From an uncultured virus (IMG/VR IMGVR_UViG_2841629896_000001) (lineage: Duplodnaviria; Heunggongvirae; Uroviricota; Caudoviricetes): DNA of 55,441 nucleotides. The notes beneath the pieces are model-generated. The model saw only the letters and a list, made by a program, of their open reading frames with translations. It did no database searches and was not told where the DNA came from. Below are positions 5,520 to 30,383 of this stretch, piece after piece (positions within the stretch are counted from its first letter, which is position 1; each line of letters begins with the position of its first letter). The stretch lies in IMG/VR virus record IMGVR_UViG_2841629896_000001, one strand, 5' to 3'. The position numbers and the translations under genes are program-made.

Positions 5520-5945
5520 ATGGATTTAAGCAAGGGGATATTAAATCAAATGTTTTTAAAAAAACGTAAACAGCCTATTCAAAAGAAATTTGTTGCAACG
5601 GCGGTTGGATATGCACCATGGGGATTAGGGGTGGCAGAGTATTTTTACAATCTCTATGAATATGAAGATGGTATGAGGGAATATGAAGAATTTGAAGGCG
5701 GTCAGTATCATGATCATGAGATGCCTAACAAAGTTGATTATAGTACCAAAGCGCAAGTGAAAGCATGGATATATGGGGGTGATTTACCAAAAAGCGTATT
5801 GAGTTATGAACCTTTAATAGATGAGGTCAATGTGAAAATCAAAAAACGTACAGAGAAAGCAGTGAAAACTTATGATGATATAGACAGTGAACTAGAAAAA
5901 GCGCTTGATATTCAATTGGGTAGATATCAAAATGAAAAAAAGTGA
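5520..5945 (+). CDS. Phage hypothetical protein
   Basis: 141-aa ORF co-oriented with the operon. Confidence 0.65.
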   Translation: MDLSKGILNQMFLKKRKQPIQKKFVATAVGYAPWGLGVAEYFYNLYEYEDGMREYEEFEGGQYHDHEMPNKVDYSTKAQVKAWIYGGDLPKSVLSYEPLIDEVNVKIKKRTEKAVKTYDDIDSELEKALDIQLGRYQNEKK

Positions 5946-5956
5946 AAAAAATAAAA

Positions 5957-5993
5957 AATACGTATTGACTTTAAAGAAAAGGTCGTTTATTAA
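5957..5993 (+). promoter_or_regulatory. Sigma70-type promoter with overlapping palindrome AATACGTATT
   Basis: TTGACT (5965-5970), 17 bp, TATTAA (5988-5993); palindrome at 5957-5966, also present at 13634-13645. Confidence 0.65.
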
Positions 5994-6107
5994 GGTTGGC
6001 AAGTGATTAAAAACCACGATAACTAGCGGGTAAACCACGAAAAGGTTTCTCCCATTTCTTTAAAATACTGACTTTATTTTATGCTGTCGCTAGCATATAA
6101 CGATTTT

Positions 6108-6191
6108 GTCGGGTGTGCTTATGCCATACAATACCCTTCGCGAGGGAAAAGTATAAGCAACGGACTAGTTACCGTGTTTTTAGCACCCGGC
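6108..6191 (+). ncRNA. C4/CI-like cloverleaf antisense RNA, copy A
   Basis: Closing stem GTCGGGTG/CACCCGGC; arm TGCTTAT...ATAAGCA; arm ACGG-ACTAGTTA-CCGT; single-stranded GTTTTTA. Complementary sites lie on both sides (6008-6026, 6211-6230). Confidence 0.75.
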
Positions 6192-6238
6192 GCCCTTATG
6201 GGCTGTCAATTAAAAACTCTAAATAACTAGGTGTTAAA

Positions 6239-6763
6239 ATGCATTCTAAAGAAAAAAATCAAGAAACATCTCCAAAATATCAACTCACAAATCAAACAAT
6301 CATTCGCGAAGGTAAAAAACTTTATCGCATTAAGGCGTTAAGAGATTTCGGTGATGTTAAAGCTGGTCAATTGGGCGGCTTTATTGAAAGTGAAGATAAT
6401 CTCTCTCATGATGGCAATTGCTGGGTTGGTGATCAGGCCATTGTTGTGAGTCCTGGTCGTGTTTATGATAATGCGCAGGTTTATGGCAATGCAGGTGTTG
6501 GTGGTTTTGTATATGGTAATGCTCGCGTCTACGATTCAGCAAAGGTTTTTGCCAATGCCCATGTGTATGATAATGCCCATGTTTTCGATAGTGCAAAAAT
6601 TGTAAGTAAAGTGCATGTTTATGAAAATGCCAATGCATGTGGCATGGCTATTGTTACTAAGAATATTTGTGGTGACACAATGAATAATGTTTATACAGAA
6701 CGCCTTTCTCCTTATGGTGAAATTTGCTTTGTTATGTGTCGTCCTCATAGGAAAACAGCTTAA
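6239..6763 (+). CDS. Phage LbetaH hexapeptide-repeat protein
   Basis: LYRIKALRDFGDVKAGQLGGFIE.E.NLSHDGNCWV N-domain followed by VYGNA/VYDNA repeats. Confidence 0.9.
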   Translation: MHSKEKNQETSPKYQLTNQTIIREGKKLYRIKALRDFGDVKAGQLGGFIESEDNLSHDGNCWVGDQAIVVSPGRVYDNAQVYGNAGVGGFVYGNARVYDSAKVFANAHVYDNAHVFDSAKIVSKVHVYENANACGMAIVTKNICGDTMNNVYTERLSPYGEICFVMCRPHRKTA

Positions 6764-6858
6764 ATAACGCGCGGGCGCGGCGGGGCGCCCCCTTTTAAAC
6801 ATTTCATTTTAAAATTTAAATCTTTTTATAAAGGAATAGTGTTATGCAAAAGAAATTT
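6761..6858. repeat. Intergenic GC-rich motif plus next gene start, inverted relative to 11697-11794
   Basis: TAAATAACGCGCGGGCGCGGCGGGGCGCCCCCTTTTAAACATTTC...ATGCAAAAGAAATTT is a near-identical reverse complement of 11697-11794; the core recurs at 12619-12650. Confidence 0.9.
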
Positions 6859-7647
6859 GCACTCACAAATGAAACGCGTATATTTAATAATAAAACTCTT
6901 TATCGCATTAAAGCTTTAAGAGATTTTGATGATGTCAAAGCTGGTCAATTGGGCGGCTTTATTGAAAAGGAAAACAATCTCTCTCATGATGGCAACTGCT
7001 GGGTTTATGATAATGCTCTTGTTTTAAGTCCAGCCCATATTTACGAAAATGCCAAGATTTTTAATAAGGCTATTATAATGGGTAATGTTTATGGCAATGC
7101 TCATGTGTATGACAGTGCCCGCGTTTATGCAAATGCTCATGTTTATGACAATGCGCATCTTTCTTATAATGCTTGGGTTTATCATCAGGCGCGGGTTTAT
7201 GGCAATGCAAAATTATCAGGAAGTGCACGTATTCATGGCAATGCTGAGGTTTATGATTATGCTGTTGTTAGTGGTGCTGCTAAAATTTATGGCAAGGTTT
7301 ATGGTCGTGCTAGTGTGGGGTGCCATGCTGAGATTAAAGGCTTTGTTTATGGCAATGCAAAAGTATCAGGATCTGCTTGTATTTATGATGGTGCGCATAT
7401 TTTTGATAAAGCAAGGGTTTATGGAAAAGCGGTTGTTTATAAAGATGTCAAGATTTATGGCAATGCGCGTGTTTATGAGAATGCTATGATTTATGAAAAA
7501 GTAGAAATCTATGATGACGCGTGTGTTTCTAACAGATCTATTATTGCTGAGGGTGTAAAAATTTATGGCAATGCCGCTCTTAAAGAAAAGAAAATATTTC
7601 GTGAAGATGTTTGTAGTAATGATGCCATTAGTGAAAAAGCAGCGTAA
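6844..7647 (+). CDS. Phage LbetaH hexapeptide-repeat protein
   Basis: Same N-domain with long VYGNA repeats. Confidence 0.9.
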   Translation: MQKKFALTNETRIFNNKTLYRIKALRDFDDVKAGQLGGFIEKENNLSHDGNCWVYDNALVLSPAHIYENAKIFNKAIIMGNVYGNAHVYDSARVYANAHVYDNAHLSYNAWVYHQARVYGNAKLSGSARIHGNAEVYDYAVVSGAAKIYGKVYGRASVGCHAEIKGFVYGNAKVSGSACIYDGAHIFDKARVYGKAVVYKDVKIYGNARVYENAMIYEKVEIYDDACVSNRSIIAEGVKIYGNAALKEKKIFREDVCSNDAISEKAA

Positions 7648-7674
7648 ATAACGGGGCGGGGGGCTGCTTATAAC

Positions 7675-7710
7675 AAAAAAAGCCGTGTCCTTTAAAGACG
7701 CGGCTTTTGT
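7675..7710. terminator. Bidirectional intrinsic terminator
   Basis: AAAAAAAGCCGTGTC-ctttaaa-GACGCGGCTTTT. Confidence 0.7.
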
Positions 7711-8223
7711 TTTCACAGAAGGTATATACATTTACACTAAATACGTATCACACAAAACGTGTAAAATGCAAGCATTAATACATAAAAACCGCATCAAAAT
7801 GAATTGATACGGCTTTTATAACTAATGAATCAAACAAAATAGAATTGAAAATTAAACACAAAAGCGTTTAAAAAAAATCTTTTCACTACTAAAATACATA
7901 TTTTGTGTATAAACACAAGTTTATTTCAAATATTTGATGATGATTGTTCATATGATAAAGCCGCGCTCTTTATGAACGCGGCTTCTGTTTTGCGATGTGT
8001 TTCTGTTATCGTTATTCGTAAGTTTACGAACACCTCTTTTATTGCACATTACGTATCAAAACACAAGCAAATAAGTAAAATAAAAACAGGATTAATTCTT
8101 TAGATTCAGTTTATTAAAACTATTTTTGCTTGTAATAATATAGCATAATGTGTTATATTATTGTTATGTATCAGTTATTTCCGTTTCTAAGTACCATTTC
8201 CCATAAAAAGGATAGCAAAGCAA

Positions 8224-8667
8224 ATGCTTAATAAAGTGATGTTAATTGGTCATTTAGGTGCAAATCCTGAAAGTAAAAAAATGCCGTCTGGTGTAGAAAT
8301 AGTCAATTTTCGTATGGCAACTTCTGAAAGCTACACAGATAAGGCAACCAATAAGAAAGTAGACAAAACAGAATGGCATTCCATTGTGGTCTTTAATCCG
8401 CATTTGGCAAAAATAGCGCTTCAGTATCTTAAGAAGGGTAGCAAAGTTTATATCGAGGGGCGCTTACAAACCCGTAAATGGCAAGATAAAAACGGTATTG
8501 AACGATATACAACAGAAGTCATATTGCCTCCGTACAAAGGCGACTTAAAGCTCTTAGATGCCAAAAATGATGATAATCAAGAGCAGTCATCATCTGCTTA
8601 TGACAGAAGCATTTATAGACCTCTTGATACACCCCATACCGTTATGAATGATGATGTTCCTTTTTAA
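8224..8667 (+). CDS. ssb: Single-stranded DNA-binding protein (phage copy)
   Basis: MLNKVMLIGHLGANPE, TEWHSIVVF, KGSKVYIEGRLQTRKW, C-terminal DDVPF. Confidence 0.97.
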   Translation: MLNKVMLIGHLGANPESKKMPSGVEIVNFRMATSESYTDKATNKKVDKTEWHSIVVFNPHLAKIALQYLKKGSKVYIEGRLQTRKWQDKNGIERYTTEVILPPYKGDLKLLDAKNDDNQEQSSSAYDRSIYRPLDTPHTVMNDDVPF

Positions 8668-8680
8668 ATAGAGGGTATAA

Positions 8681-8757
8681 GTGAAAAGAAACAAGAGGGG
8701 ACGCCCTAAAATCATAGGGCAAATAAGAGAAGCCAATGGTCGTATATCACGTGCAAA
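8681..8757 (+). pseudogene. 5' part of the split prophage gene; continues at 29886
   Basis: GAGGG RBS and GTG at 8681; reads MKRNKRGRPKIIGQIREANGRISRA; in frame with 29886-30383 across the 12-bp repeat. Confidence 0.85.
8746..8757 (+). repeat. att core, left junction (ATCACGTGCAAA)
   Basis: Exact match to 29885-29896. Confidence 0.85.
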
Positions 8758-10149
8758 TCCGTATCATATCAAAAAACACAATAAAGTCAATATGTTGATT
8801 GCAATTATTTTATATGAATCCACTTAAGAATCCATCTTTTTATGCATGATTCATTTGACCATTTTTTATATAAGATTGCCATGTATGAATAGACCATAAA
8901 AAGCAAATCATGGTGCAAATATTATAACGCATGTAAACATTCAAATGAAATGAAAAGCAGATATCATTCATAACAGTTCATAAATTTTATGATACGTTTT
9001 TATCACAGCACAAATCACATTGTTTAAAATTTAGTCGTTTGGAACTATCGATAACATACGTTTAAAGATCACATCTTGTTTTAAAGATTGGATTGTTAAT
9101 CGCATATTAACGTTCGCCAAAATTGGCGAGCGCAAAATAGAGAGCTGTCATAACAGCAGCATCATAATACCGAACATTTTAAAGATTGCATAAAAGGATT
9201 AAGGACAAGATCGCTTTTAAACGCTTTCTAAAAGTTTAGAAAACGATAAAGAGGTATTTTATATCTTATGAAATGAAAAGCCTTTTAATGAATAGATTGC
9301 AGACTAGTTTTTAGAACAGAACTATATTCGCTTCCATAAAAAAATGGAGGCGCATAATGCCATAGAAGTAGAATACTATATACCTTAGACATGGTATAAA
9401 AAACGTTTTAAAAGTTATCGTTTTAAAATATGAAACCAAATGAGATCTCCTCAAATTTGAGGGCATCTATTTTAGACAAAGATAAGCAAGTAAAATTCAA
9501 AACCGTTGTAACATCATAAGGCACAGGATTTACTTAATTGTGCTAGCCAAATAGAGCGATTAATTTGCAAAGAAGCTTTGTTTAAAATACGCTTATTATG
9601 AAAGCCTTTCTAAATGAATGTTTAAACGTTTGAAACGGATGTTTATAATAATTTTTAAAACCTTCCATTTGATAAAAGCGGTTGTTTATTTATCTTATGA
9701 GAGCTTGTTTTAAAAACCAGCGTTTGCAAATGTAAAAAGAACGTTTTTATAAGACATTCATTTAAGATGCATTTTCTTTTGATTGAATTGATAAAGCTAC
9801 CAAACGTTTTGATTTGTTTGATAGGTTTTGATTTTAGATAATGTGTTATTTGAATTCACTCAGCTCGATTTTGAGCTTAGTATATTGAAACGTTTTAAAA
9901 GAAGCATTGTGATCATGGGCTTTGTTTTAAAAACCCCCCTCACAAAGGAGGGTGTTATGATTAATACGTTTGAGAGTAACAAAAAGCGCTTATAGGCTCT
10001 CTCATTCAAGTGAGTGATTAAAGATCATATACATCATTTACGTTCCTTTTGATAAGTTTTCATATCTCTAATAGAGCGCTTGTAATAGATATGTTTTGTA
10101 TATATGTGTCATTACCTTGATTAGGGTTGATTCATAAGGATAGACATTA

Positions 10150-10186
10150 GAAAGCCGCGTCATATCAGTTGGCACGGCTTTCTTTT
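10150..10186. terminator. Hairpin terminator at the end of the minus-strand LbetaH array
   Basis: GAAAGCCGCGTCA-tatcagt-TGGCACGGCTTTC followed by TTTT; related to the 7675-7710 hairpin. Confidence 0.6.
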
Positions 10187-10246
10187 ATGAATTCTCTCTT
10201 TTATGATGGGTTTATAGCCATAAAGAAGGCACCCCCATACCTATTT

Positions 10247-11026
10247 TTATTCTGTTTTATCAATAATCTTAACGACATTATCGCTTTGATAAACCTCATA
10301 ATTTTTAGGAACTAACTTTGCTTTGCTTTTTGTGTTGATTGTTGCATTGCCATAAGCACGCCCCCAGATCGTTGCACAATGTGAGATTTTTGCATTACCA
10401 TAAACAGAGCCATAAATCTCACAAGAGCCCCCCACGCGCGCATTGCCATAGACCTTGCCATAAATCTTTGCACGACCATTAATCACAGCATAATTATAAA
10501 TTTTCGCATGGCTATAAATGCAAGCAGAGCCACAAACCCTAGCATGACCATAGACGCGGGCATAACTAAAAACCGTAGCATCATAAGAAACATGCGCATG
10601 GTCATAAATATGAGCATCAGCAAGAACGCGGGCAGCACCACTCACATGAGCATTGCCATAAACATTGCCATACACATGAGCACTCCCATAAACACAAGCC
10701 TGATCATAAATCTTTGCATATTGAGAGATAAAAGCCTTGCCATAGACCTCGGCATTGCCATAAACGAGACCACAGACTTGAGAATAATGCCGTATTTTTG
10801 CATCATCATAAACACGGGCATGACCATAGACACAAGCATTATCATAAACCCAGCAATTGCCATCATGAGATAGGTTGACTTCCTTTTCAATAAAACCCCC
10901 CAATGCACCCGTCTTTACATCAGCAAAATCTTTTAATGCTTTAATGCGATAAAGGCTTGTAATATTTCGAGTAAGAGCATGTTTGATTTTTTTGATTTCA
11001 CTGGTTAATTCATATTTTTTGCACAT
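10247..11026 (-). CDS. Phage LbetaH hexapeptide-repeat protein
   Basis: LYRIKALKDFADVKTGALGGFIEKEVNLSHDGNCWVYDNA plus repeats. Confidence 0.9.
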   Translation of the reverse strand: MCKKYELTSEIKKIKHALTRNITSLYRIKALKDFADVKTGALGGFIEKEVNLSHDGNCWVYDNACVYGHARVYDDAKIRHYSQVCGLVYGNAEVYGKAFISQYAKIYDQACVYGSAHVYGNVYGNAHVSGAARVLADAHIYDHAHVSYDATVFSYARVYGHARVCGSACIYSHAKIYNYAVINGRAKIYGKVYGNARVGGSCEIYGSVYGNAKISHCATIWGRAYGNATINTKSKAKLVPKNYEVYQSDNVVKIIDKTE

Positions 11027-11132
11027 AGAGATACCCTCACAATTTAATGTGTTAAACGTTTTCTAAAATTTGGAATGGAAAAATTTGGTTTGAAAGCAAG
11101 CGCCCCCACAACGCCCGCCGCTGCTTTATTGA

Positions 11133-11711
11133 TTAAACCCAGACAATTTCTAACTCGCCATAAGGAGAGAGACGTTCAGTATAGGTTTTTATTTTAGTAG
11201 ACCCGCCGACATTTTCACGAATAACAGCAATGCCATGGATATGAGCATTTTCAAAAATATGCACGTCATTTGCTATACGCGCGTTTTCATAAACCCTAGC
11301 ATTGTCATAAACATAGGCATTATCATAAATAATAGCCTTGCCATACACATGAGCATTGCCATAGACACGGGAATTATCAGAAACAACGGCATTGCCATAA
11401 ACATGCGCATTATCATAAATATAGCCAGCAGCGATAGCATTATCATAAACGCGGGCATGACCATAGATATGACCACAAGCGACAGCCTTGCCAAAAACCC
11501 TTGCGTTTTCATAAACGTGACCATTTTTAAACACAAGAGCATCATCATAAACCCAGCAATTGCCATCATGAGAGAGGTTATCTTCCTTTTCAATAAAGCC
11601 CCCCGAGGCACCCGCTTTAACATCAGAAAAGTCTTTTAATGCTTGGATACGATAAAGGGTATGATTACCAAATACACGCGTTTCATTTGTGAGTGTAAAC
11701 TTTTTTTGCAT
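11133..11711 (-). CDS. Phage LbetaH hexapeptide-repeat protein
   Basis: Same family; N-terminus like the 6844 gene, C-terminus (YTERLSPYGE) like the 6239 gene. Confidence 0.9.
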   Translation of the reverse strand: MQKKFTLTNETRVFGNHTLYRIQALKDFSDVKAGASGGFIEKEDNLSHDGNCWVYDDALVFKNGHVYENARVFGKAVACGHIYGHARVYDNAIAAGYIYDNAHVYGNAVVSDNSRVYGNAHVYGKAIIYDNAYVYDNARVYENARIANDVHIFENAHIHGIAVIRENVGGSTKIKTYTERLSPYGELEIVWV

Positions 11712-11791
11712 AACACTATTCCTTTATAAATAGATTTAAATTTTAAAATGAAATGTTTAAAGGGGGCGCCCCCGCCGCGCCCGCGCATTAT

Positions 11792-12565
11792 TTACGCAGC
11801 GTCTTTTCTAGACTGATTATCATCACAAATATCATTCGTAATTTTTTCACGGCTATTAACCACGGCATTACCATAGATTTGTACATCATGATCAATATTG
11901 GATTTACCATAGACCTTTGCATTTTCATAAATTCTTGCAAAGGAGCCCACCCGAGCCGAGCCAGAAACCTTTGCATCATCAAAAATACTTGCAAAACTCT
12001 TAATCCAAGCATTACAAAAGACATGGGCATTGCCATAAATACACGCCCCCCCATAAATGCGTGATTTACCATAAACATGGGAATTCCCATAAACAAAGCC
12101 ACTCACATGAGCATTTTCATATACACGGGCATTATCATAAATATGTGCACTAGGAGAAACATTAGCATTATCACAAACCATGGCATTGCCATAAACTAGA
12201 CCACAGATCCTAGCATTGTTACTAATTTTTGCATTGTCATAAATGCTAGCATCATGACCGAATACCCATGCCTTATCACAAACCACAGCATTCCCATAAA
12301 CTTTAGCTTCCCTAGCAATAATGGCATCATGATGTATTTTTGCATTTTCAGAAACGACGGCATTGCAAAAAACCATAGCATTATCATAGACCCAGCAATT
12401 GCCATCATGGGAGAGGTTGTTTTCATTTTCAATAAAACCGCCCAATTGACCAGCCCTAACATCATCAAAATCTCTTAAAGCACGAATGCGGTGTACAGTA
12501 ATCCCTTCAAAAGTATGATTTTCATTAGTCAATTCATATTTTTTAGATACAGTTATAGTGGACAT
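11792..12565 (-). CDS. Phage LbetaH hexapeptide-repeat protein
   Basis: HRIRALRDFDDVRAGQLGGFIENENNLSHDGNCWVYDNA plus repeats. Confidence 0.9.
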   Translation of the reverse strand: MSTITVSKKYELTNENHTFEGITVHRIRALRDFDDVRAGQLGGFIENENNLSHDGNCWVYDNAMVFCNAVVSENAKIHHDAIIAREAKVYGNAVVCDKAWVFGHDASIYDNAKISNNARICGLVYGNAMVCDNANVSPSAHIYDNARVYENAHVSGFVYGNSHVYGKSRIYGGACIYGNAHVFCNAWIKSFASIFDDAKVSGSARVGSFARIYENAKVYGKSNIDHDVQIYGNAVVNSREKITNDICDDNQSRKDAA

Positions 12566-12647
12566 AGGTAACTCCCTAAGTTTATATTTGATAAATTTTA
12601 GAATGAGATTTTTAAAGAGGGGCGCCCCCGCCGCGCCCGCGCGTTAT

Positions 12648-13379
12648 TTACGCAGCATCATTTTCATATTCGCTATCATCGTCATAATACCATTCACAAT
12701 CAGCATAATACTCATGACGGTAATAATCATCTTCACTTCCAAATTCTGGATATGCCTCATCCCAAATATGATCATCAGCAGTTAAAGAGGCGGCGCTATG
12801 AACATAAGAATCGCCAGAGATAAGAGCCCCACAAACCACGGCATCATCAAAAACACGCGAGCCATCACAAATATGAGCAGCGCCGCTTATTTTAGCATTG
12901 CCACCGACATGAGCATCATCACAAATAACGGCATCATCACAAATATGAGCATGATCAGTGACGCGGGCGTTATCATAAATTTTAGCATTACCTTCAATTA
13001 CAACGGCATTGCTAACATGAGCATTTCCATAAAGCTTTGCATTGTCCTTTAATAACATGCCTTCAAAAATAGCATTACCATAAATTCTTGCATTACCACA
13101 AACATCAACAAAAAAGCTTTTTACTTTAGCATTGCCTGAAACCCTTGCATTTTGAAAGACGCGCGCTTTGTCATAAACCCAGCAATTGCCTTTGTGAGAT
13201 AAGTTACTTTCGTTTTCAATATACCCCCCAAGATCGCCCGCTTTGACATCACCAAAATCTCTTAAAGCACGTATACGGTATAATATGAGACCAGTCACAA
13301 AATCCATTTCGCCAGTAAACTCATACTTTTTGGATATTTTTTTCTTATTAACGGGGGTAATTTTTGAGATATTTGTCAT
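12648..13379 (-). CDS. Phage LbetaH hexapeptide-repeat protein with an acidic, Tyr-rich tail
   Basis: Same N-domain; ends EDDYYRHEYYADCEWYYDDDSEYENDAA. Confidence 0.9.
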   Translation of the reverse strand: MTNISKITPVNKKKISKKYEFTGEMDFVTGLILYRIRALRDFGDVKAGDLGGYIENESNLSHKGNCWVYDKARVFQNARVSGNAKVKSFFVDVCGNARIYGNAIFEGMLLKDNAKLYGNAHVSNAVVIEGNAKIYDNARVTDHAHICDDAVICDDAHVGGNAKISGAAHICDGSRVFDDAVVCGALISGDSYVHSAASLTADDHIWDEAYPEFGSEDDYYRHEYYADCEWYYDDDSEYENDAA

Positions 13380-13428
13380 AATTAAAACCTTATGGTTATA
13401 TGTTTGTTATTGACACCCCTATAAGGGC

Positions 13429-13510
13429 GCCGGGCGCTAACAAACACGGCCATAAGTCCGTTGTCACACTTTTCTCATAAAGAGTATTGTATGGTGTGAC
13501 CACACCCGAC
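13429..13510 (-). ncRNA. C4/CI-like cloverleaf antisense RNA, copy B
   Basis: Minus strand: GTCGGGTG...CGCCCGGC; arm GTCACAC...GTGTGAC; ACGG-ACTTATGG-CCGT; GTTTGTTA. Complementary sites at 13590-13610 and 13389-13409. Confidence 0.75.
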
Positions 13511-13619
13511 AAAATCACTATATATGCTAACAAAAGCATAAAAGAAAGTCAGTTTTTATAATAGGATTAGGTTTATCGCAACCTAGTCGCTTATGGTTTA
13601 GTGTTTGTTAATCACTTAA

Positions 13620-13653
13620 TTATTTATATAACAAAATACGTATTTATTGTCAA
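13620..13653 (-). promoter_or_regulatory. Sigma70-type promoter with palindrome AAATACGTATTT in the spacer
   Basis: TTGACA on the minus strand at 13653-13648, 17 bp, then TATATA; palindrome at 13634-13645. Confidence 0.65.
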
Positions 13654-14827: not shown

Positions 14828-17800
14828 TTATTCAGTTTCTCTTAATACCAGATTTGGTAAGTTTTTTACGATTTTCATTGTTTCTAAACTTACAGTAATA
14901 ACCCTTTGAAATAATTCTAAAGGGTAGGCAGGGTTGCCAACGGTTTCAACAGCATAGCGATTGGCATCATTGACAATGCCGCTCTTTTTATCAGTCTTAA
15001 CACATTGACGCCCCATAACCCATTCAAGAGCAGGCTTGCCGTTGACGATATACTCATAAGCTTCAAGAGGGATATCTGTTATGGTAATATTGCTATTATA
15101 GATAACCGTTGATTTATCCTTTTCCTTACTATTCTTAATTTTTGCGAATTTCATTTCAGTTACATAATAGAATTTTTCGGGATTAGAGATGTCAGTTAAT
15201 TTTGGATTACCCTTTTTAAAGGTTACTGGATAAGGCTCTACATCTTCATAATTCACGTGCAAATGACCCAGTTCACGCCCTGCTGTTACAAATTTCCAAA
15301 AATCTTCAGCACTCTTTACACAAGGGATACGAGGTAATTCTTTAGAGAGGTTATCAGCATAACGGGCACGATAATCTTCCGAATGCAAAATTCCATAAAC
15401 GTAATAGAATAGATCATCCTTAGAGATTTTTTCATTAGGATAAGCTGCTTTAAAATGTGCTAATCCCGCATCTGTAATGCCATCACGAACTTTCTTTTTT
15501 ACACTTGCAGCAAATAAACTCTGGTTATGATGTTTTTTTTCATCAGAATATAATAAAAGTGGATAGCATCTCGTTTTTTCCAATGTATCAAAACTGATTG
15601 GCTTATTTGTCATAAGACAAGAAAATCCTGATCGATTTCCTATTCCAGAAACACAAATTCCAAGGTTGCCAAGAATATTTGAGTTAAAAAATTGATGCGT
15701 GTGTCCTAGACCTTCATTTAAGAATGGTGATGTATAATGCCATAGTGTCATAAACGGGCGATAAAGAATGAGAGCTTTTAGATGAGATTCAAATGTTGCT
15801 TCTATGCTCCGTTTTAATTTGGAGATAAGAGCATCCGTCCAACTGATTTTTGTAGTATCATAATCAATGATTTTTTTCATAGATATAGACGGATTTTCAG
15901 CAACGAGACGCCTTTGTTCATTAAAAAAATCAATTGCCTTTTGCACAGATGTACTTAGTGCATCTGTTGAAAAATTACAAACCCAAGAATCTCTTGCTGT
16001 TCTCATACCAAGCGACACTTCCTCAAAAAGCTTAGTATCTATCGACGTATTCCTATCTCCCATAGGCATAAATTGATAAAAATTGACATCTCTTGGTTTT
16101 ATCCAGTCATGCTTTTCATTAGGAGTAATTTCAATAAATTGTTTGGAGTGTGTTATTCCTTTTATACTCTTAAATTCACGCAATTGCTTTAATTTTTCCT
16201 TTGTAGAAAGGTTATCCCCAATATCATGATAGAAAATCTTACAAGGCTGTTGTTTTTTTGGATTACGTACAAAAAGAGTTATTGATATTCCATTTTGACA
16301 TCCAGAGCCAAAGACGTTTTGTCCTTCTTTTGCCATTCTGTTCGATAATCTGTTTTTTCGAATATCTCCACGAAGATTAACGATATAAATAGAGGAATAT
16401 TCATTTTCTAAACAACTACGCATACCATCCGCAGAGATTTTATCTATCCATCCATTCCCAGAAATATAAGCGACAATACCTCCTTGTGAACTTAAGCGAT
16501 TACTTGCCCACCTAATTGCTCGAATATAGCTATCATAAAGCTTATTTCGATTCATTTTTTCTGATGATCTCGTTATATATTGTTTATAGATACTATCATC
16601 AAGCGTATCATAACGCACATTTGGATTGTTATCATTGGCATTTTTTTGCCCTACGGAATAAGGAGGGTTGCCAACAATAACTTGGATATCTGCTTCCTGC
16701 TGTTTTTTACACCGCTCTGAATTCTCAAACATATAGCGTGTAAAAAAATCTTTTTCCTCTAACATCAGAAACGTATCAGTTAAACAAATTCCTTCAAAGG
16801 GTATATAATCTCCTTTCATAAGACTATGATAAGTCGATTCAATGTTAATGGCTGCTATGTAATAGGCTAGGAGAACAATCTCGTTGGCTTTGATTTCATT
16901 TCGGAACTTATATTCCATATCCTCTGGTTTTATCAGTCCAGATTGTAAAAGCCTTGTAATAAAGGTTCCTGTACCTGTAAAAGGGTCAAGAATAGAGACG
17001 CCTCGAGAACTTAAGCTTTGTCCAAACTCTTGCTCTAAAACATCATTGACGGAATGTAAGATAAAATCAACTATTTCAATAGGCGTATAAACAATCCCAA
17101 GCTTATCTGTTGTCTTTTTGAATGCCTTGGTAAAAAAATCTTCGTAAAGTTTGATAATAAGATTCTGTTTTGCTCGCGTCTCAATAATCTCCTCTGTATC
17201 ATCCTTTACACTTTGATAAAACTTTTCAAGATCTTTGGCTTCGTCTTTGATATTAATCTTATCAAGTTCTCTTAAGATCTTTTCCATCGCTTGCGAGATG
17301 GCGTTTTTACTCACAAACTCATTTCCATCAAACAAGGATTCAAAAATAGGTCGTGTCACAAGGTGTTGCGCCAACATCTCGAGTGCATCCTCTTGCTCGA
17401 TACTGTCATTTAAACCGTTCTTTAATTCTTTATGAAAGGCATCAAAAGCATGAAAGGCTTCACTCTTTTTATCAGCGAGTATGCTTTTAAGACGAATAAT
17501 ATGATTTTGTGCAATTGCAGCTACATTGCCAGCCCAATTTCCCCACTGATTAGGCTCCCCACATTTTTTGACAATGATGGGCTTAATAGCACGCGATAAT
17601 TCATCAACATAAAACTCGAATTCTTTTTGTCCTTCATAGCTATGAGAATTTTCACTTGCTACTGAACCAATATGAAGCCCAGCACCTTCCGATTTCGTAT
17701 GGAAAGAGAGTTCGTCAACAACTGCGGTCATTGCTTGTAAAGCAGGGTCAAAAGTGACTCCTACAATCTCAAACACATGACGAACATTTTGGTCTAGCTC

Positions 17801-19756
17801 TAAGGCTTTTATTTTGTTTTTAAAGTTGTCATCATGAGCACGCAAAGCATTGAGAACTTGCCAGATGACATCATACTTTGTATTGTTTTCTAAAGCCTGT
17901 TGTGGTGGAATATTAAAGGGAATACCAACGGGTAAAATAATATAGCCTGTTGTTTTACCTTCTGCGCGGCGCATCACACGCCCCACAGCCTGTATCACAT
18001 CCACATGACTTTTACGCGGGTGTAAAAACATAACCGCATCAAGAGCAGGGACATCGACTCCTTCAGAGAGACAGCGGACATTGGTTAACACACGGCAGTT
18101 ATTCTCATCTGTATCTTCTTTAAGCCAATCAAGTAATTTATTACGATTTTTGCCATTAAAAGAGCCATCAATGTGCTTAACATCAAAGATAAGAGAAGTC
18201 TTACTTTCTGGAACAAATTTATGATATTCATCAATGGCGTCATTGAATAGTTCGCTAACGAGTTGAGACGTATTGATATTTTTACAAAAAGCCAGAGAAC
18301 GACGCATAGGTTTTATGCCATCTTCTTCTTTCTTTTCTATTTGGGAAAGTGCTTTGTAGCAGCCAATGATTTTGGTTGTATCATCAAGAATAAGTTCGGA
18401 ATTTTTATCTTTAAGGCGTTTCTGAATCGTTGCGTTAATAATTGCTTCATCAACAGCCAAGACGATAACTTTATAGGGTGTTAAAAGTTTATCTTTTAGA
18501 GCTTTTGAAAAAGTATAAGTGTAAAGATTTTTTCCATAGAGCTCTTCATCATCCATGGACGCCAGAACAGCATCAGATGCGTCAGCCTTCTTTTTCAACT
18601 TGTCGGTAAAGATCTTAGGGGTTGCCGTCATGTACAGACGTTTTTTGCCCCGAATGATGCTGTTATCATGAACCTTGATAAATTCAGATTCACGCTTGTC
18701 TGTTCCTAACACAGCTCCAGTGGTACGGTGTGCTTCATCACAGATGATCAGATCAAATTCGGGTAAATCATACTTTTTTTGCGCATCCGAAATCACTTGG
18801 ATTGAATGGTAAGTAGAAAAGACCACAGTCATTAGATCAAGAGAAGTTTTATTGGCTTTACGCGCAAGCTCTTTGGCATCGGTCGTAGCCGGTAAAACAA
18901 GGTCTGATGCATCGAGACCAGCTTCATCATCATCATTTTTATTATTCTTCCGACGTTTACCCACTTGTGTATCCGAACACACAGCAAAGGAACGCAAAGG
19001 CACTTCTGTATCTTCTGTCCATTCACGAATTGTTTGAGAGATAAGAGCAAGGGAGGGTACCAAAAATAAAACACGTTTGCCTTGACCTGCTATGGTTTCT
19101 GCTATCTTCAAACTGGTGAAAGTCTTTCCCGTTCCACATGCCATAATGAGTTTGCCACGGTCTGCTTCTTTTAAACCTTCACAGACTTTCTCAAGGGCTT
19201 CTTTCTGATGATCTAAAAGCTTTTTCTTTGGTTTCTCTTTAAGGACGGCTTGTCCTTGTTCTTTATAAGCGCTCCAATCGATTTGACTGCTTTCCAAATC
19301 AAAAAGGTTAATACGTTGAATACGAACCTCTTGTCCTTCACAAGTCAGTTCAACATTGTCACTCCAATCTGTTTCAGTGCTATCAACCAGTATGCGACGG
19401 GTGAAGATTTTTTTGCCCGAGGCAGCGATAAAGCTATCAATATCTTCTTTTTTAATTATGTGAGAGGCGTTATAGCATTTACATTGAATGGCAGCATAAC
19501 CTCCTTCATCACGGATTGTCGCCACCAGATCAATCCCAATATCCGTTCCATCTTCATCATGCTCTTTTGCCCATTCCAAATAAGTTTGAACCTTTTCGTA
19601 TTCTTGCTTTTGAAGAGGGTCTTCACTCAAATAAACCATGACAAGGTTTTCAAACATGGTTCCTAATTCACGGGGTGATTTTGATTGTTCGCGATAATAT
19701 TCCAACAGAGAGCGTAAAGTGACATGTTCATTATCAGAATTAACAGATTGCAGCAT
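14828..19756 (-). CDS. Type ISP single-polypeptide restriction-modification enzyme (LlaGI/LlaBIII-like)
   Basis: Mrr-like nuclease (GIDLVA..AIQCKCY), SF2 helicase (MACGTGKT, DEAH, TAT, QAVGRVMR), N6-adenine MTase (LDPFTGTG, GNPPY), C-terminal target-recognition region; 1642 aa. Confidence 0.95.
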   Translation of the reverse strand: MLQSVNSDNEHVTLRSLLEYYREQSKSPRELGTMFENLVMVYLSEDPLQKQEYEKVQTYLEWAKEHDEDGTDIGIDLVATIRDEGGYAAIQCKCYNASHIIKKEDIDSFIAASGKKIFTRRILVDSTETDWSDNVELTCEGQEVRIQRINLFDLESSQIDWSAYKEQGQAVLKEKPKKKLLDHQKEALEKVCEGLKEADRGKLIMACGTGKTFTSLKIAETIAGQGKRVLFLVPSLALISQTIREWTEDTEVPLRSFAVCSDTQVGKRRKNNKNDDDEAGLDASDLVLPATTDAKELARKANKTSLDLMTVVFSTYHSIQVISDAQKKYDLPEFDLIICDEAHRTTGAVLGTDKRESEFIKVHDNSIIRGKKRLYMTATPKIFTDKLKKKADASDAVLASMDDEELYGKNLYTYTFSKALKDKLLTPYKVIVLAVDEAIINATIQKRLKDKNSELILDDTTKIIGCYKALSQIEKKEEDGIKPMRRSLAFCKNINTSQLVSELFNDAIDEYHKFVPESKTSLIFDVKHIDGSFNGKNRNKLLDWLKEDTDENNCRVLTNVRCLSEGVDVPALDAVMFLHPRKSHVDVIQAVGRVMRRAEGKTTGYIILPVGIPFNIPPQQALENNTKYDVIWQVLNALRAHDDNFKNKIKALELDQNVRHVFEIVGVTFDPALQAMTAVVDELSFHTKSEGAGLHIGSVASENSHSYEGQKEFEFYVDELSRAIKPIIVKKCGEPNQWGNWAGNVAAIAQNHIIRLKSILADKKSEAFHAFDAFHKELKNGLNDSIEQEDALEMLAQHLVTRPIFESLFDGNEFVSKNAISQAMEKILRELDKINIKDEAKDLEKFYQSVKDDTEEIIETRAKQNLIIKLYEDFFTKAFKKTTDKLGIVYTPIEIVDFILHSVNDVLEQEFGQSLSSRGVSILDPFTGTGTFITRLLQSGLIKPEDMEYKFRNEIKANEIVLLAYYIAAINIESTYHSLMKGDYIPFEGICLTDTFLMLEEKDFFTRYMFENSERCKKQQEADIQVIVGNPPYSVGQKNANDNNPNVRYDTLDDSIYKQYITRSSEKMNRNKLYDSYIRAIRWASNRLSSQGGIVAYISGNGWIDKISADGMRSCLENEYSSIYIVNLRGDIRKNRLSNRMAKEGQNVFGSGCQNGISITLFVRNPKKQQPCKIFYHDIGDNLSTKEKLKQLREFKSIKGITHSKQFIEITPNEKHDWIKPRDVNFYQFMPMGDRNTSIDTKLFEEVSLGMRTARDSWVCNFSTDALSTSVQKAIDFFNEQRRLVAENPSISMKKIIDYDTTKISWTDALISKLKRSIEATFESHLKALILYRPFMTLWHYTSPFLNEGLGHTHQFFNSNILGNLGICVSGIGNRSGFSCLMTNKPISFDTLEKTRCYPLLLYSDEKKHHNQSLFAASVKKKVRDGITDAGLAHFKAAYPNEKISKDDLFYYVYGILHSEDYRARYADNLSKELPRIPCVKSAEDFWKFVTAGRELGHLHVNYEDVEPYPVTFKKGNPKLTDISNPEKFYYVTEMKFAKIKNSKEKDKSTVIYNSNITITDIPLEAYEYIVNGKPALEWVMGRQCVKTDKKSGIVNDANRYAVETVGNPAYPLELFQRVITVSLETMKIVKNLPNLVLRETE

Positions 19757-22475: not shown

Positions 22476-22572
22476 TTTAAATCCTATAACGTTGCGTCAC
22501 AGGACGGATTGTGCACTCTCTAGATTGATGAGTTTGAGAAAGCCTTGTCCGTCCTTACGTGACAAGGTTTTT

Positions 22573-22773
22573 TTATGCCACGTCGTTATAACGTTGCTGT
22601 TTTGCTTGTTCGATTACATTCAAAAGATCCGATTGTAACCAACGGGATAAAAAACCAAATTTTAAAGGTTTTGGGAGAGAGCCATTGGTAACATGACGGC
22701 GGAATGTTGAGACACTCATATGAAGCAATTTTGCACTTTCACGGTCTGTTAAAAGAATATCATTTTCTGTCAT
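22573..22773 (-). CDS. AlpA/excisionase-like HTH protein
   Basis: LLTDRESAKLLHMSVSTFRRHVTNGSLPKPLKFG..SRW. Confidence 0.9.
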   Translation of the reverse strand: MTENDILLTDRESAKLLHMSVSTFRRHVTNGSLPKPLKFGFLSRWLQSDLLNVIEQAKQQRYNDVA

Positions 22774-22982
22774 TCTAAAAACCTTTTATTTTCAAAAAAT
22801 GGAAACAAATCATGCCCATTTATTAAGCACATTTTGGTTTATTTTTGAAGGTATTTTATTTATAGAAAACAATATATTATCATATAATTTCTGATGTGAT
22901 AATTTATGCGTCTTATTGAGAGAGAATGAGAAAACAGAGAGAGAAAGTTATTCACAGATCATGGGGTTATGCACCCCATATC

Positions 22983-24149
22983 TTAAGATTGCCCAGTGAC
23001 ATAAGCCGCCCATTTATCCATATAGACACGGCGCTGTTCTAGATAGTCCGTACGACGATAGGCACGCTCTACTTTACCGCCTACCGTATGACTTAGAATA
23101 GTTTCAGCGACCTCATAGGGGGCATCGGTTGTTTCAGCGAGCCAATCGCGTAAACTAGAACGAAAGCCATGCGGGCAGGCGTTTAGTCCAGTTTTTTGCA
23201 TATACCTTGCCATATTACTTTCACCAAGAGGAGCACGACCGGTTGCAGAAAGGATAAAATCACTTTTGGAAAGACAGCGAGCATGTTCAATCACTTTCAT
23301 TGCTTCTGTTGATAAAGGTACGCGAAATTCTGTTGTAGCATCGCGCTTTCCTTTCATATTTTCAGCAGGGATTGTCCATATATTTCCATCAACCTGATCC
23401 TTATGAATATAACGTAAGGAATGCGTACGAACGCCTGTCAAGATGAGCAAACGCAAAGCCAGTTGTGTTATAGCTGTTGTTTGGCAAAGTGTTTTATAAA
23501 AAGCGGGTATATCTCTCCAATCCATTGCTGGTCTATTAGTGATTTTATGACGTTGTTTACCTAAAAGAGCACGTGCTTTTTCGGTTGCTTGTAAGTCAAC
23601 ATCTAAACCTAGTGCAGCCGCATGTTTGAGACAAAGTTTGAGACGCATCAATGCTGTCCGAGCAGCTCCAGCTTTTGTATGCCAAATAGGGGCAAGGGTA
23701 TCGCGTATCTCTGTTTGCGTAATTTCTGAAACGGGTAAACAACCTAATTTGGGGAGAATATGAAGTTGTAAAGGCGAAAACCAATCTCCATTTTTACCCT
23801 CTCCTTTTAATTCAGCTTTACGAGTTTCAAAAGTGTCTAAAGCAATATCTTTTAAATAATGGAGATTACTTATTGCCTCACGCTTTTGTTTATTGCGCTC
23901 TTTAATGGGGTCACGCCCCTCATGCAAAACAGAACGCCATTGGTTTGCCAATTCACGTGCTTTTTTTAAAGAAACATGTCTTAAAGCACCCAATCCCATT
24001 TCACGACGGCGCCCGTGAAGGGTATACCGTAAAATCCATTGAGCACCTCCATCTTTACGCTTATGAAGTAACAAGCCGGCACCATCATTATATTTGCCAG
24101 CCCCCAATGTTGCGACAGATCTTGCATTCAGACGGTTCATAAGAGCCAT
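22983..24149 (-). CDS. int: P4-like tyrosine integrase, copy 1
   Basis: Arm-binding N-domain (YNDGAGLLL, RRREMGLG); catalytic LTGVR, HGFRSS, ILSH, AYRR. Confidence 0.95.
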   Translation of the reverse strand: MALMNRLNARSVATLGAGKYNDGAGLLLHKRKDGGAQWILRYTLHGRRREMGLGALRHVSLKKARELANQWRSVLHEGRDPIKERNKQKREAISNLHYLKDIALDTFETRKAELKGEGKNGDWFSPLQLHILPKLGCLPVSEITQTEIRDTLAPIWHTKAGAARTALMRLKLCLKHAAALGLDVDLQATEKARALLGKQRHKITNRPAMDWRDIPAFYKTLCQTTAITQLALRLLILTGVRTHSLRYIHKDQVDGNIWTIPAENMKGKRDATTEFRVPLSTEAMKVIEHARCLSKSDFILSATGRAPLGESNMARYMQKTGLNACPHGFRSSLRDWLAETTDAPYEVAETILSHTVGGKVERAYRRTDYLEQRRVYMDKWAAYVTGQS

Positions 24150-24324
24150 TTTTAATCCTTTCTTATACAAATTTTATCCACACACTCATCCCACTTGTTA
24201 TGTGCAAATGAGTGGTTTTGATTGATGCAACATAAACAGATTTGAAATGAGAGAATCTTACGTTATTCGAGACTCTCATTCAACATACAAAACAGTGAAT
24301 TATCATTATAAATCAGTGTGTTGA

Positions 24325-28543: not shown

Positions 28544-29710
28544 CTAAGATTGCTCAGTGACATAAGCCGCCCATTTATCCATATAGACACGGCGCTGTTC
28601 TAGATAGTCAGTACGACGATAGGCACGCTCTACTTTACCGCCTACCGTATGACTTAGAATGGTTTCAGCAACCTCATAGGGGGCATCGGTTGTTTCAGCA
28701 AGCCAATCGCGTAAACTAGAACGAAAGCCATGCGGGCAGGCATCAAGTTTATTTTTTTTCATATATTTTGACATAACATTCTCAGCAAGGGGACCTCGAC
28801 CGGAAAAAGACAGAATGAAATCACTTTTAGAGATACAACTGGCTTGTTCAATCACTTTTAGAGCTTCTAAAGATAGGGGTACGCGAAATTCTTTTGTTGT
28901 ATCACGCCTTCCTTTCATATTCTCAGCAGGAATAGTCCATATATCCCCATCAATCTGATCCTTATGAATATAACGTAAGGAATGTGTACGAACGCCTGTC
29001 AAGATGAGCAAACGCAAAGCCAGTTGTGTTATAGCTGTTATTTGGCAAAGTGTTTTATAAAAAGCGGGTATATCTCTCCAATCCATTGCTGGTCTATTAG
29101 TGATCTTATGACGTTGTTTTCCTAAAAGAGCGCGTGCTTTTTCTGTTGCTTGTAAATCAACATCCAAACCCAAAGCAGCTGCATGTTTGAGACAAAGTTT
29201 GAGACGCATCAATGCTGTCCGAGCAGCTCCAGCTTTTGTATGCCATNTAGGGGCAAGGGTATCGCGTATCTCTGTTTGCGTAATTTCTGAAACGGGTAAA
29301 CAGCCTAATTTAGGGAGAATATGAAGGCGTAAAGGTAAAAACCAAATTCCATCTTTCCCATCCCCTTTTAATTCAGCTTTATGGCTTTCAAAAGCATCCA
29401 CGGCAATATCTTTTAAATAATGGAGATTGCTTATTGTCTCACGCTTTTGTTTATCGCGTTCTTTAATGGGGTCACGCCCCTCACGTAAAACAGAACGCCA
29501 TTGATTTGCACATTCACGGGCTTTTTTTAAAGAAACATCTCGCAACGCTCCCAATCCCATTTCGCGACGACGCCCGTGAAGGGTATAACGATAAATCCAT
29601 TGAGCACCTCCATCTTTACGCTTATGAAGAAGCAAGCCGGCACCATCATTATATTTGCCAGCCCCCAATGTTGCTACAGATCTTGCATTAAGACGGTTCA
29701 TAAGGACCAT
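28544..29710 (-). CDS. int: P4-like tyrosine integrase, copy 2
   Basis: Same motifs as copy 1; open frame with one N at 29247; adjacent to the right att core. Confidence 0.95.
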   Translation of the reverse strand: MVLMNRLNARSVATLGAGKYNDGAGLLLHKRKDGGAQWIYRYTLHGRRREMGLGALRDVSLKKARECANQWRSVLREGRDPIKERDKQKRETISNLHYLKDIAVDAFESHKAELKGDGKDGIWFLPLRLHILPKLGCLPVSEITQTEIRDTLAPXWHTKAGAARTALMRLKLCLKHAAALGLDVDLQATEKARALLGKQRHKITNRPAMDWRDIPAFYKTLCQITAITQLALRLLILTGVRTHSLRYIHKDQIDGDIWTIPAENMKGRRDTTKEFRVPLSLEALKVIEQASCISKSDFILSFSGRGPLAENVMSKYMKKNKLDACPHGFRSSLRDWLAETTDAPYEVAETILSHTVGGKVERAYRRTDYLEQRRVYMDKWAAYVTEQS

Positions 29711-29884
29711 TTTTACTCCTTTCTTATACAAATTTGATCCACACACTCATCCCACTTGTTATGTGCAAATGAGTGGTTTTGATTGATACAACATACACAG
29801 ATTTGAAATGAGAGAATCCTACGTTATTCGAGACTCTCATTCAACATACAAAACAGTGAATTATCATTATAAATCAGTGTGTTG

Positions 29885-29896
29885 ATCACGTGCAAA
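29885..29896 (+). repeat. att core, right junction (ATCACGTGCAAA)
   Basis: Exact match to 8746-8757; preceded by the IHF-consensus-like AATCAG-TGTG-TTG at 29872-29884. Confidence 0.85.
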
Positions 29897-30383
29897 AGCA
29901 CCCCGTGAAGCCGTTGATCAATTGGCAATAGAAATGCGTGCAAAACGCTTCGGTTTAACCCTATACGAGGCAAAAAATCCACTTTCTGGGTCTTACATAG
30001 GGCGGCTTTGTTTGCAAGGTGTGCTTACACAAGAGCAATATGACGCCGCGCAACAGTACTTACAGATAAGAAACGATTATCTATGTGCAAAAGGCTTGCC
30101 TAATGCGATTTATGACGAAATGCCGTCATCATCTGATGATAAGGCAAGAGATAAGTGGGTAGCATTCGCAACAGAGCAGTTTATCAACATGCAAGAGGCA
30201 CTAAAAGAAGCGCAACAGCGCTATAGACAGTATAATCTTTATGCCGCGATAAATCATCTCGTTATAGAAGATCAAATGCTACCATATCGAATTCATTGCG
30301 CATTGCTCTTAATGCGCTTCAGAACTATTTTGATCAAAAAAGTAAATGGTAATTGTTTTATGTGCTTTTGCAGAATGACGTGA
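29886..30383 (+). pseudogene. 3' part of the split prophage gene (putative late regulator/antiterminator)
   Basis: SRAKAPREAVDQLAIEMRAKRFGLTLYEAKNPLSGSYIGRLCLQGVLTQEQYDAAQQY...; in frame with the GTG at 8681. Function inferred from position. Confidence 0.75.

Follow-up and report, generated by a model that had tools for sequence, protein, structure and literature searches.

The stretch of DNA analyzed here (the window, 55,441 nt) forms the right-hand end (55 kb) of a 117-kb provirus record of an uncultured virus (IMG/VR IMGVR_UViG_2841629896_000001). It carries two copies, A and B, of a small RNA element, each standing upstream of an array of beta-solenoid genes of the YdcK family and flanked on both sides by short sequences complementary to two of its single-stranded segments, a hairpin loop (b') and a joining strand or bulge (a') (Table 1). 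Judged by the closest relatives of the first solenoid gene, which occur in rodent-associated Bartonella species (91-95% identity), the host of the provirus is a Bartonella. Copy A belongs to a prophage early operon, copy B to an inserted island. The ATG start codon of the first gene lies at 6239 in copy A, 8 nt past b2, and at 13379 in copy B. A preliminary description of the locus, made from the letters alone, had placed both RNAs, their loops and bulges, and all eight target sites; direct reading confirmed these positions, together with the statement that a left-handed beta-helix (LbH) gene comes first behind each RNA and that b2 overlaps the ribosome-binding site of this gene. The extents of the RNAs had to be revised: the cores stood but are longer (6108-6199 and 13510-13421 in the Rfam alignment), and a conserved additional 3' hairpin, not listed before, takes them to ~6203 and ~13416. 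Copies A and B align at 81% mean column identity over ~330 nt, the differences clustering in loop, bulge, and targets. The calculated minimum free energy is -31.1 kcal/mol for RNA A (z -2.9) and -28.7 kcal/mol for RNA B (z -1.8).

Table 1. Features of the two RNA elements and of their surroundings (window positions)
Feature	Position	Strand	Remarks
Candidate promoter, copy A	5965-5993	+	TTGACT-17 nt-TATTAA just upstream of a1, read by eye
a1, copy A	6008-6014	+	TAAAAAC; complementary to bulge 7/7
b1, copy A	6020-6026	+	TAACTAG; complementary to loop 7/8
RNA A	6108-6203	+	outer stem P1, hairpin P2/P2b, hairpin P3, strand a', hairpin P4
Loop b', copy A	6164-6171	+	ACTAGTTA, 8 nt, in hairpin P3
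Bulge a', copy A	6176-6182	+	GTTTTTA, single-stranded
3' hairpin P4, copy A	6192-6203	+	
a2, copy A	6211-6217	+	TAAAAAC
b2, copy A	6224-6230	+	TAACTAG; runs into AGG of the ribosome-binding site (6229-6231)
Array A, two YdcK-family beta-solenoid genes	6239-6763, 6844-7647	+	174 and 267 aa (amino acids); PF18836, phrog_5070/7964
Candidate promoter, copy B	13625-13653	-	putative; TTGACA-17 nt-TATATA upstream of a1, read by eye
a1, copy B	13610-13603	-	TAACAAAC; complementary to bulge 8/8
b1, copy B	13596-13590	-	CCATAAG; complementary to loop 7/8
RNA B	13510-13416	-	scaffold as in copy A; 3' hairpin to ~13416
Loop b', copy B	13457-13450	-	ACTTATGG
Bulge a', copy B	13445-13438	-	GTTTGTTA
a2, copy B	13409-13402	-	TAACAAAC
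b2, copy B	13395-13389	-	CCATAAG; overlaps AAGG ribosome-binding site (targets region 13388-13409)
Array B, four YdcK-family beta-solenoid genes	12648-13379, 11792-12565, 11133-11711, 10247-11026	-	PF18836, phrog_5070/7964
ssb	8224-8667	+	3' of array A; SSB PF00436
~21-kb insert	8700-29900		break relative to the gene order of the sister prophage; array B and RNA B inside
~390-nt direct repeat	22480-22867 and 28040-28428		copies 92-95% identical

The pairing of loop and bulge with the flanking sites was followed through homologous contexts, retrieved from public viral contigs with an exact pattern derived from the 3' part of the RNA. This search returned at least 145 stretches with 184 cores, which reduce to 103 unique contexts with 56 loop/bulge combinations. 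A match was defined by at least 7 of 8 loop positions and a bulge without mismatch, the downstream complement lying within 90 nt. Complements to both loop and bulge are present downstream in 90 of the 103 contexts and upstream in equally many, and all four sites are complementary in 82/103. Non-cognate pairings, in which an RNA was combined with the flank of another copy differing in both loop and bulge, matched in 0/8130 cases downstream and in 20/8130 upstream. Pooled, 158 contexts contain at least 41 loops, at least 13 bulges (joining strands), and at least 95 combinations of the two, with five variable positions among the 8 nt of the loop; the earlier proposal that changes in loop and bulge are tracked by both target pairs is borne out in more than 150 homologues. 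The geometry at the gene start is similarly constrained, b2 ending on the first two bases of AGGAG in 68 of 89 contexts, and 8-10 nt separating b2 from the start codon in 81 of 89.

Within the window, RNA A pairs with its own targets on both flanks at 7/8 loop and 7/7 bulge positions (Watson-Crick), as opposed to 5-6/8 and 5/7 on the targets of copy B. RNA B reaches 7/8 and 8/8 on its own targets, as opposed to 5-6/8 and 6/8 on those of copy A. The suggested orthogonal codes are supported to the extent that the two RNAs are mutually non-complementary. Loop/bulge combinations are all distinct within each of three genomes (7/7, 14/14, and 11/11); random draws from the pool give such uniqueness with P = 0.85, 0.48, and 0.64, so that chance explains it and it provides no evidence for selection.

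Copies A and B are two of seven paralogues in the 117-kb record. The loops of the seven are all different, and the downstream sites follow loop and bulge in 7/7. Ranked by duplex energy, the cognate site comes first in 7/7 rows for downstream targets and in 6/7 for upstream ones. The other five copies, all outside the window, each precede an antirepressor gene, comprising four AntA genes (three with a KilAC/ANT domain) and one Rha+ANT gene. Because of these five paralogues, the suggestion that the LbH genes stand in place of the usual icd/ant or kil genes has to be given up: they are extra cargo, and ant has not been replaced in the element. The same picture emerges from the 103 viral-contig contexts, where the cargo is AntA in 69, Rha/ANT in 15, a solenoid gene in 5, another gene in 2, and no intact gene in 12. 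The sister copies carry a TTGACT-18-TATAAT promoter, read by eye, directly before the RNA. In one of them (genome ~5.9-6.2 kb), the upstream b1 fits the loop of another copy, ACTGTGTA, instead of its own, ACTATGCA, and this leader looks recombinant, unless its b1 serves as a cross-talk site.

Regarding the identity of the RNA, cmscan matched both cores to sRNA-Xcc1 (RF02221), below its cut-off of 53 bits, and to no other family at E <= 10. RNA A matches over its full length with 45.4 bits (E 5e-7) and RNA B with 40.7 bits (E 6e-6), and the seven record copies all match full-length with 40.4-50.2 bits (E 5e-7 to 3e-9). Around copy B, Rfam gave four more weak matches (E 2.4-9.9), each of them outside the core or on the opposite strand. 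The copies possess the outer stem around two hairpins, the conserved AUACAAUACC...GGGAA hairpin, and the variable second loop of this family, and the alignment with sRNA-Xcc1 covers the same four-helix scaffold from end to end, the AT-rich sequence being one difference from the described members. In an alignment of 92 distinct sequences, the scaffold is near-invariant while loop and bulge are hypervariable. Ten of the 26 pairs of the consensus structure show compensatory changes, located in P2, P2b, and the 3' hairpin P4 (e.g., CG 43 vs UA 39 at columns 15/48 of the second helix).

When a covariance model built from Bartonella RNAs (R1) was run on 150 other genomes of the same order, it detected RNAs at ~40 bits in 3 of them, and these three pass the RF02221 cut-off with 62.6-68.1 bits. 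Read by eye, all three are followed by complements to loop and bulge at the ribosome-binding site; two are also preceded by both, the third by a1 alone. The genes behind them are small (72-150 aa) and have no assigned function. Since R1 finds cut-off-passing members with the same flanking sites, sequence comparison places the Bartonella RNAs within sRNA-Xcc1 as an AT-rich branch scoring below its threshold, and a c4-like character seems to extend to the entire Rfam family.

The layout of both copies is that of a P1-type c4 module, as had been recognized in the preliminary description. The annotated P1 record gives for the immI region the order promoter P1c4, a1 (7 nt), b1 (8 nt), 67 nt, c4 RNA (77 nt), a2, and b2, with the icd start codon 11 nt past b2, then ant. 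Copy A has the same order at similar spacing, i.e., a promoter-like site, a1 (7), b1 (7), 81 nt, RNA (~95), a2, b2, 8 nt, and the start codon, with the putative promoter in a position equivalent to P1c4/P51b. Common to P1 c4 and copies A and B are two single-stranded RNA segments for two sites, the second of which lies at the ribosome-binding site; in addition, the sister copies precede antirepressor genes like P1 immI. Unlike P1, copies A and B carry a YdcK-like solenoid array and not icd/ant, the record holds seven paralogues as compared with one, and no C1-type operator was recognized. R1 does not detect P1 c4. The CI RNA of P4 and phiR73 is likewise a short processed RNA with complementary sites on both sides on the same transcript, which define immunity specificity; it acts through transcription termination. 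Set apart from it by description alone, the present elements have a target overlapping the ribosome-binding site, and no terminator-like site follows.

All six solenoid genes of the window exceed the PF18836 cut-off of 30 (32.6-66.2 bits) and belong to phrog_5070/7964, which have no assigned function. A profile of ten solenoid proteins matches YdcK (PDB 2f9c) with E 6.6e-32 over the N-terminal domain and the first turns. Because the sequence profile had already identified YdcK, the predicted structure of the first solenoid protein (mean pLDDT, a confidence score, of 63.8) was not used for a fold search. The NCBIfam model for YdcK, NF040481, scores 67-124 bits against an equivalog cut-off of 350. 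The proteins begin with a common, conserved N-terminal domain of ~50 residues, to which solenoid turns are added in varying number, and they differ from YdcK (PF18836, NF040481; PDB 2f9c/2pig) in being shorter, variable in length, and arrayed in tandem. PADLOC gave no match for four solenoid proteins and the upstream 141-aa protein, and domain, PADLOC, and NCBIfam searches found no toxin family among the cargo proteins. Judged by titles and abstracts, the literature on YdcK and phages held no paper on function.

The linkage between RNA and solenoid gene is general in Bartonella. A solenoid profile scan of one genome per species gave 78 loci, all of them in Bartonella, in which R1 found 56 RNAs; 55 of these are on the strand of the gene, and all 55 lie upstream of it. 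Where at least 2 kb of upstream sequence was present, an RNA precedes the gene in 40 of 46 loci. A script parsed 48 of the 55 hits, seven with an outer-stem variant being missed by its pattern. In these 48 contexts, the loop reaches 7/8 in 47 and the bulge is perfect in 42, compared with 28/2172 non-cognate loops reaching 7/8, and the first gene 3' of the RNA is a solenoid gene in 44. Beyond this genus, the YdcK-like family occurs widely among temperate phages from many phyla (81 phage records). In Mannheimia phage 587AP2, Liberibacter phage SC2, and Xanthomonas phage MK21, the solenoid gene stands unguarded in an early operon (3/3), with no c4-like RNA before it by R1 and Rfam (0/3). In Mannheimia phage vB_MhS_587AP2, C4 and isrK precede the ant gene and not the solenoid gene. 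The two RNAs occupy positions 6620-6832 there, an isrK-like match of 43.7 bits (below cut-off) being followed by C4 with 53.8 bits (above), and neither is annotated in the phage record, which marks solely a promoter and a terminator before the anti-repressor Ant gene.

Several further observations concern this cargo. In array B, which lies in AT-rich DNA, the short intergenic gaps (11756-11824 and 12612-12680) share a 69-nt element that is conserved (81% identity) and very rich in GC; it may form a hairpin or attenuator separating the genes of the array. The record also has other short YdcK-like genes or N-terminal fragments with no RNA before them, at genome 47266-48127 and 61409-61810 (blastn). 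A locus of Bartonella rattimassiliensis (L162, 117-905) has two successive RNA units, one before a ~100-aa protein without assigned function and the next before a solenoid gene. The ~100-aa protein, also found in three other loci (L059, L196, and L255), represents in L162 a third cargo type for the RNA switch.

Based on the fold of the RNA and its conservation, the complementarity and covariation of loop, bulge, and targets, the overlap of b2 with the ribosome-binding site, and the cargo, all of which are directly observed, we infer that the elements are antisense-RNA switches of P1 c4 type, encoded in cis, built on the sRNA-Xcc1 scaffold, and acting as translational repressors, and assign this reading a probability of roughly 80%. 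Both solenoid arrays are, on this sequence evidence, most likely kept silent by antisense RNAs. A promoter upstream of a1 would transcribe the leader with a1 and b1, the ~95-nt RNA, a2, b2, and the solenoid genes; in copy A, the candidate at 5965-5993 would drive such a transcript. The folded RNA would expose the 8-nt hairpin loop b' and the 7-8-nt joining strand a', which would pair with b2 and a2 on the mRNA. As b2 reaches into the Shine-Dalgarno sequence and ends 8-10 nt ahead of the start codon, its pairing would block ribosomes on the first solenoid gene, and polarity would then probably silence the array in the lysogen. Sites a1 and b1 would be a second, upstream copy of the targets as in P1, probably holding or modulating the RNA in its precursor. 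Because each paralogue has its own loop and bulge, each RNA would address its own cassette alone, with A and B as two independent specificities. Processing of the RNA, its action in trans, and a need for silencing the cargo would likewise be parts of this scheme.

A number of results weigh against this interpretation. No Rfam family attains its gathering score anywhere in the window; that of sRNA-Xcc1, 53 bits, is reached by 0/7 record copies, and standard annotation misses the copies because their scores fall below the cut-off. The search with C4 and c4-a1b1 models, proposed as a check in the preliminary description, was negative: neither C4 (RF01695, gathering score 45 bits) nor c4-a1b1 (RF03163) has a match at E <= 1 in the 117-kb record, phage P1 scoring 68.8 bits with C4 in the same search. 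The third model named there, c4-2, was not searched by accession, the cores having matched sRNA-Xcc1 alone at E <= 10. Matching downstream sites are absent in 13 of the 103 contexts. Neither candidate promoter of the window was called by the consensus scan, the -10 hexamer of copy A ending in A. A terminator scan found no terminator on the RNA's strand after RNA A or B, two terminator-like sites near copy B lying inside the RNA or on the other strand; since no terminator follows, a free RNA would need processing. In addition, the RNA at genome 25714 is estimated to bind the target of copy A with -12.8 kcal/mol, compared with -12.4 kcal/mol for the cognate RNA. One sister RNA is thus predicted to bind this target no less well than RNA A, and by energy estimates orthogonality is incomplete.

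Expression data came from the 3 RNA libraries among the 17 runs listed, each with 6-8% of the sampled words and all compared as assembled contigs over 5600-7700. The sole signal at the element is one assembled 395-nt contig (depth 126) that spans the leader, covering 5898-6117, and extends into a variant RNA core. It stems from a related variant, may represent DNA carry-over or read-through, and its start, end, strand, and discreteness are not readable. In the same run, contig depth was 111 over the upstream gene and ~40 over the solenoid genes. In the remaining two runs, coverage was confined to parts of the solenoid genes, and 6168-6451 was uncovered in all three.

Finally, the covariation fits intramolecular pairing in cis as well as pairing in trans. 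A leader switch might accordingly operate entirely in cis, with the RNA never released: pairing of a'/b' with a1/b1 would be the ON state and pairing with a2/b2, occluding the ribosome-binding site, the OFF state of a self-contained riboregulator without diffusible immunity factor. That both target pairs lie on the RNA's own transcript and covary equally (90/103 on either side), that no terminator-like site follows the RNA 3', and that the scan called no internal promoter in copies A and B are all consistent with it. We nevertheless consider it unlikely. Sister copies have the TTGACT-18-TATAAT promoter directly before the RNA, the P1 record annotates a separate c4 RNA binding a2/b2 in the homologous layout, and seven orphan contexts (in L035, L045, L058, L093, L146, and L147) consist of a promoter, a1b1, and the RNA without a2b2 or a gene, leaving nothing to regulate in cis. 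These orphan units stand 241 nt before a complete RNA-antirepressor unit and differ from it in specificity in 6/7 cases; they hint at action in trans and are possibly free-standing trans-acting immunity RNAs.

Still less probable is a type I toxin-antitoxin-like addiction cassette, in which the solenoid proteins would be harmful and the RNA an unstable antitoxin stabilizing prophage or island; this differs from the c4-type switch in purpose, not in pairing mechanism. The portions consulted of a study of Xanthomonas integron cassettes place sRNA-Xcc1 upstream of the toxin gene symE (bioRxiv 10.1101/2025.06.18.660453), the record cassettes sit among RelB/YafQ, HigB, ParE, and HicA toxin-antitoxin genes, and copy B resides in an integrative island. 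No evidence points to toxic YdcK-family proteins, PADLOC returned no match, and the gene family goes unguarded in the early operons of 3/3 other phages, all of which speak against addiction. A last reading, with the 7-8-nt repeats as DNA operators for a protein or the RNA as a trans-acting "virulence" sRNA with host targets and incidental flanking complements, draws on the treatment of sRNA-Xcc1 as a trans-acting sRNA in the parts consulted of PMC12189769 and on a' and b' being inverted copies of a1/a2 and b1/b2 at the DNA level, and is highly improbable, since compensatory base-pair changes in the scaffold point to RNA, orphan units encode no protein that could co-evolve with 95 site combinations, and the complements occupy fixed positions on both flanks (82/103 vs 0-20/8130 by chance).

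The c4-type switches of the window are embedded in a composite provirus. The record comprises two prophages, the first of which spans genome 1-58 kb and combines lambda-type head genes with P2-type tail genes. The second, P22-like prophage occupies the window; its early genes fall at 1-8.7 kb, its late genes at 31-55 kb. The early regions of both are syntenic as far as ssb, where window 8208-8546 matches genome 39289-38952 (blastn); the next match joins window 29886-30339 to genome 38742-38285. Because the shared gene order stops at ssb and resumes there, ~8.7-29.9 kb is regarded as an insert. It contains array B, RNA B, a Type ISP restriction enzyme, DUF3987, ParE, two integrases, and a haemagglutinin-repeat gene. 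Each copy of the ~390-nt direct repeat adjoins one of the integrase genes (22983-24170 and 28544-29746), and these repeat and integrase pairs suggest two tandem integrative elements. Synteny, integrases, and repeat together back the earlier view of a prophage plus a nested element; tRNA genes as integration targets are absent from the window. The restriction enzyme (14828-19756, minus strand) is a 1642-aa single-polypeptide Type ISP restriction-modification enzyme with Mrr-like nuclease, helicase, methylase, and specificity domains and adjoins the promoter region of RNA B. At 52579-54150 (plus strand), a protein of the tail-fibre region contains an "Mtd second domain" (PF21916), whose fold is that of the diversity-generating-retroelement target in a Bordetella phage. 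The copy A region had no match among 50,697 phage records (blastn).

Another multi-copy RNA family of the genus was considered. The Brt RNAs of Bartonella henselae, as presented in the sections consulted of PMC5387305, are 194-203 nt long and precede XRE helix-turn-helix genes. They resemble the present RNAs in being multi-copy, Bartonella-restricted, located in the plastic, prophage-rich part of the genome, and each upstream of a regulator gene. Identity was rejected, as the pan-Brt primers available from that source find no site in the 117-kb record with up to 4 mismatches, nor in the fetched loci with up to 3, and the genes downstream of our RNAs are solenoid or antirepressor genes, not XRE. 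In the literature searched, no paper on c4-like RNAs in Bartonella was found.

The mechanism class itself is already known from P1 c4. The available extracts on sRNA-Xcc1 (RF02221) describe an integron-borne trans-acting sRNA of Xanthomonas. It is also placed upstream of an ORF6N gene in APSE phages (bioRxiv 10.1101/2020.03.17.996009), and for one Xylella genome a table in PMC12189769 shows hits to C4, isrK, and sRNA-Xcc1 that are at most ~400 nt apart. None of these sources, to the extent covered, presents sRNA-Xcc1 as a c4-type switch flanked by its targets. The consulted part of PMC2864571 lists c4 and c4-a1b1. Compared with the literature searched, the Bartonella branch missed by standard annotation, the size of the two-site specificity repertoire, and the YdcK-like solenoid arrays as cargo are new.

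For Bartonella as a genus, a wider reading can be put forward tentatively, possible though less likely than the switch itself. One scaffold would provide a combinatorial two-site RNA address code, by which at least 14 cassettes per genome would be silenced separately and orphan RNAs would police others in trans, while the solenoid arrays would form a new class of prophage effectors, antirepressor-like or host-toxic, kept off in the lysogen like ant. If this holds, sRNA-Xcc1, published as a virulence-linked trans-acting sRNA, would generally be a c4-type cis-encoded immunity RNA, and our results support re-reading it as a c4-type switch. The proposed switches by themselves would be the first regulatory setting for the widespread YdcK-like solenoid genes of phages, which would be handled like antirepressors, so that the effect of switching them on becomes directly testable. 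The ~100 matched RNA-target pairs, which share one scaffold and differ at about eight positions, represent a natural library suited to testing how much sequence orthogonal RNA control requires, and the plastic, prophage-rich regions of Bartonella genomes would harbor multi-copy regulators currently invisible to annotation.

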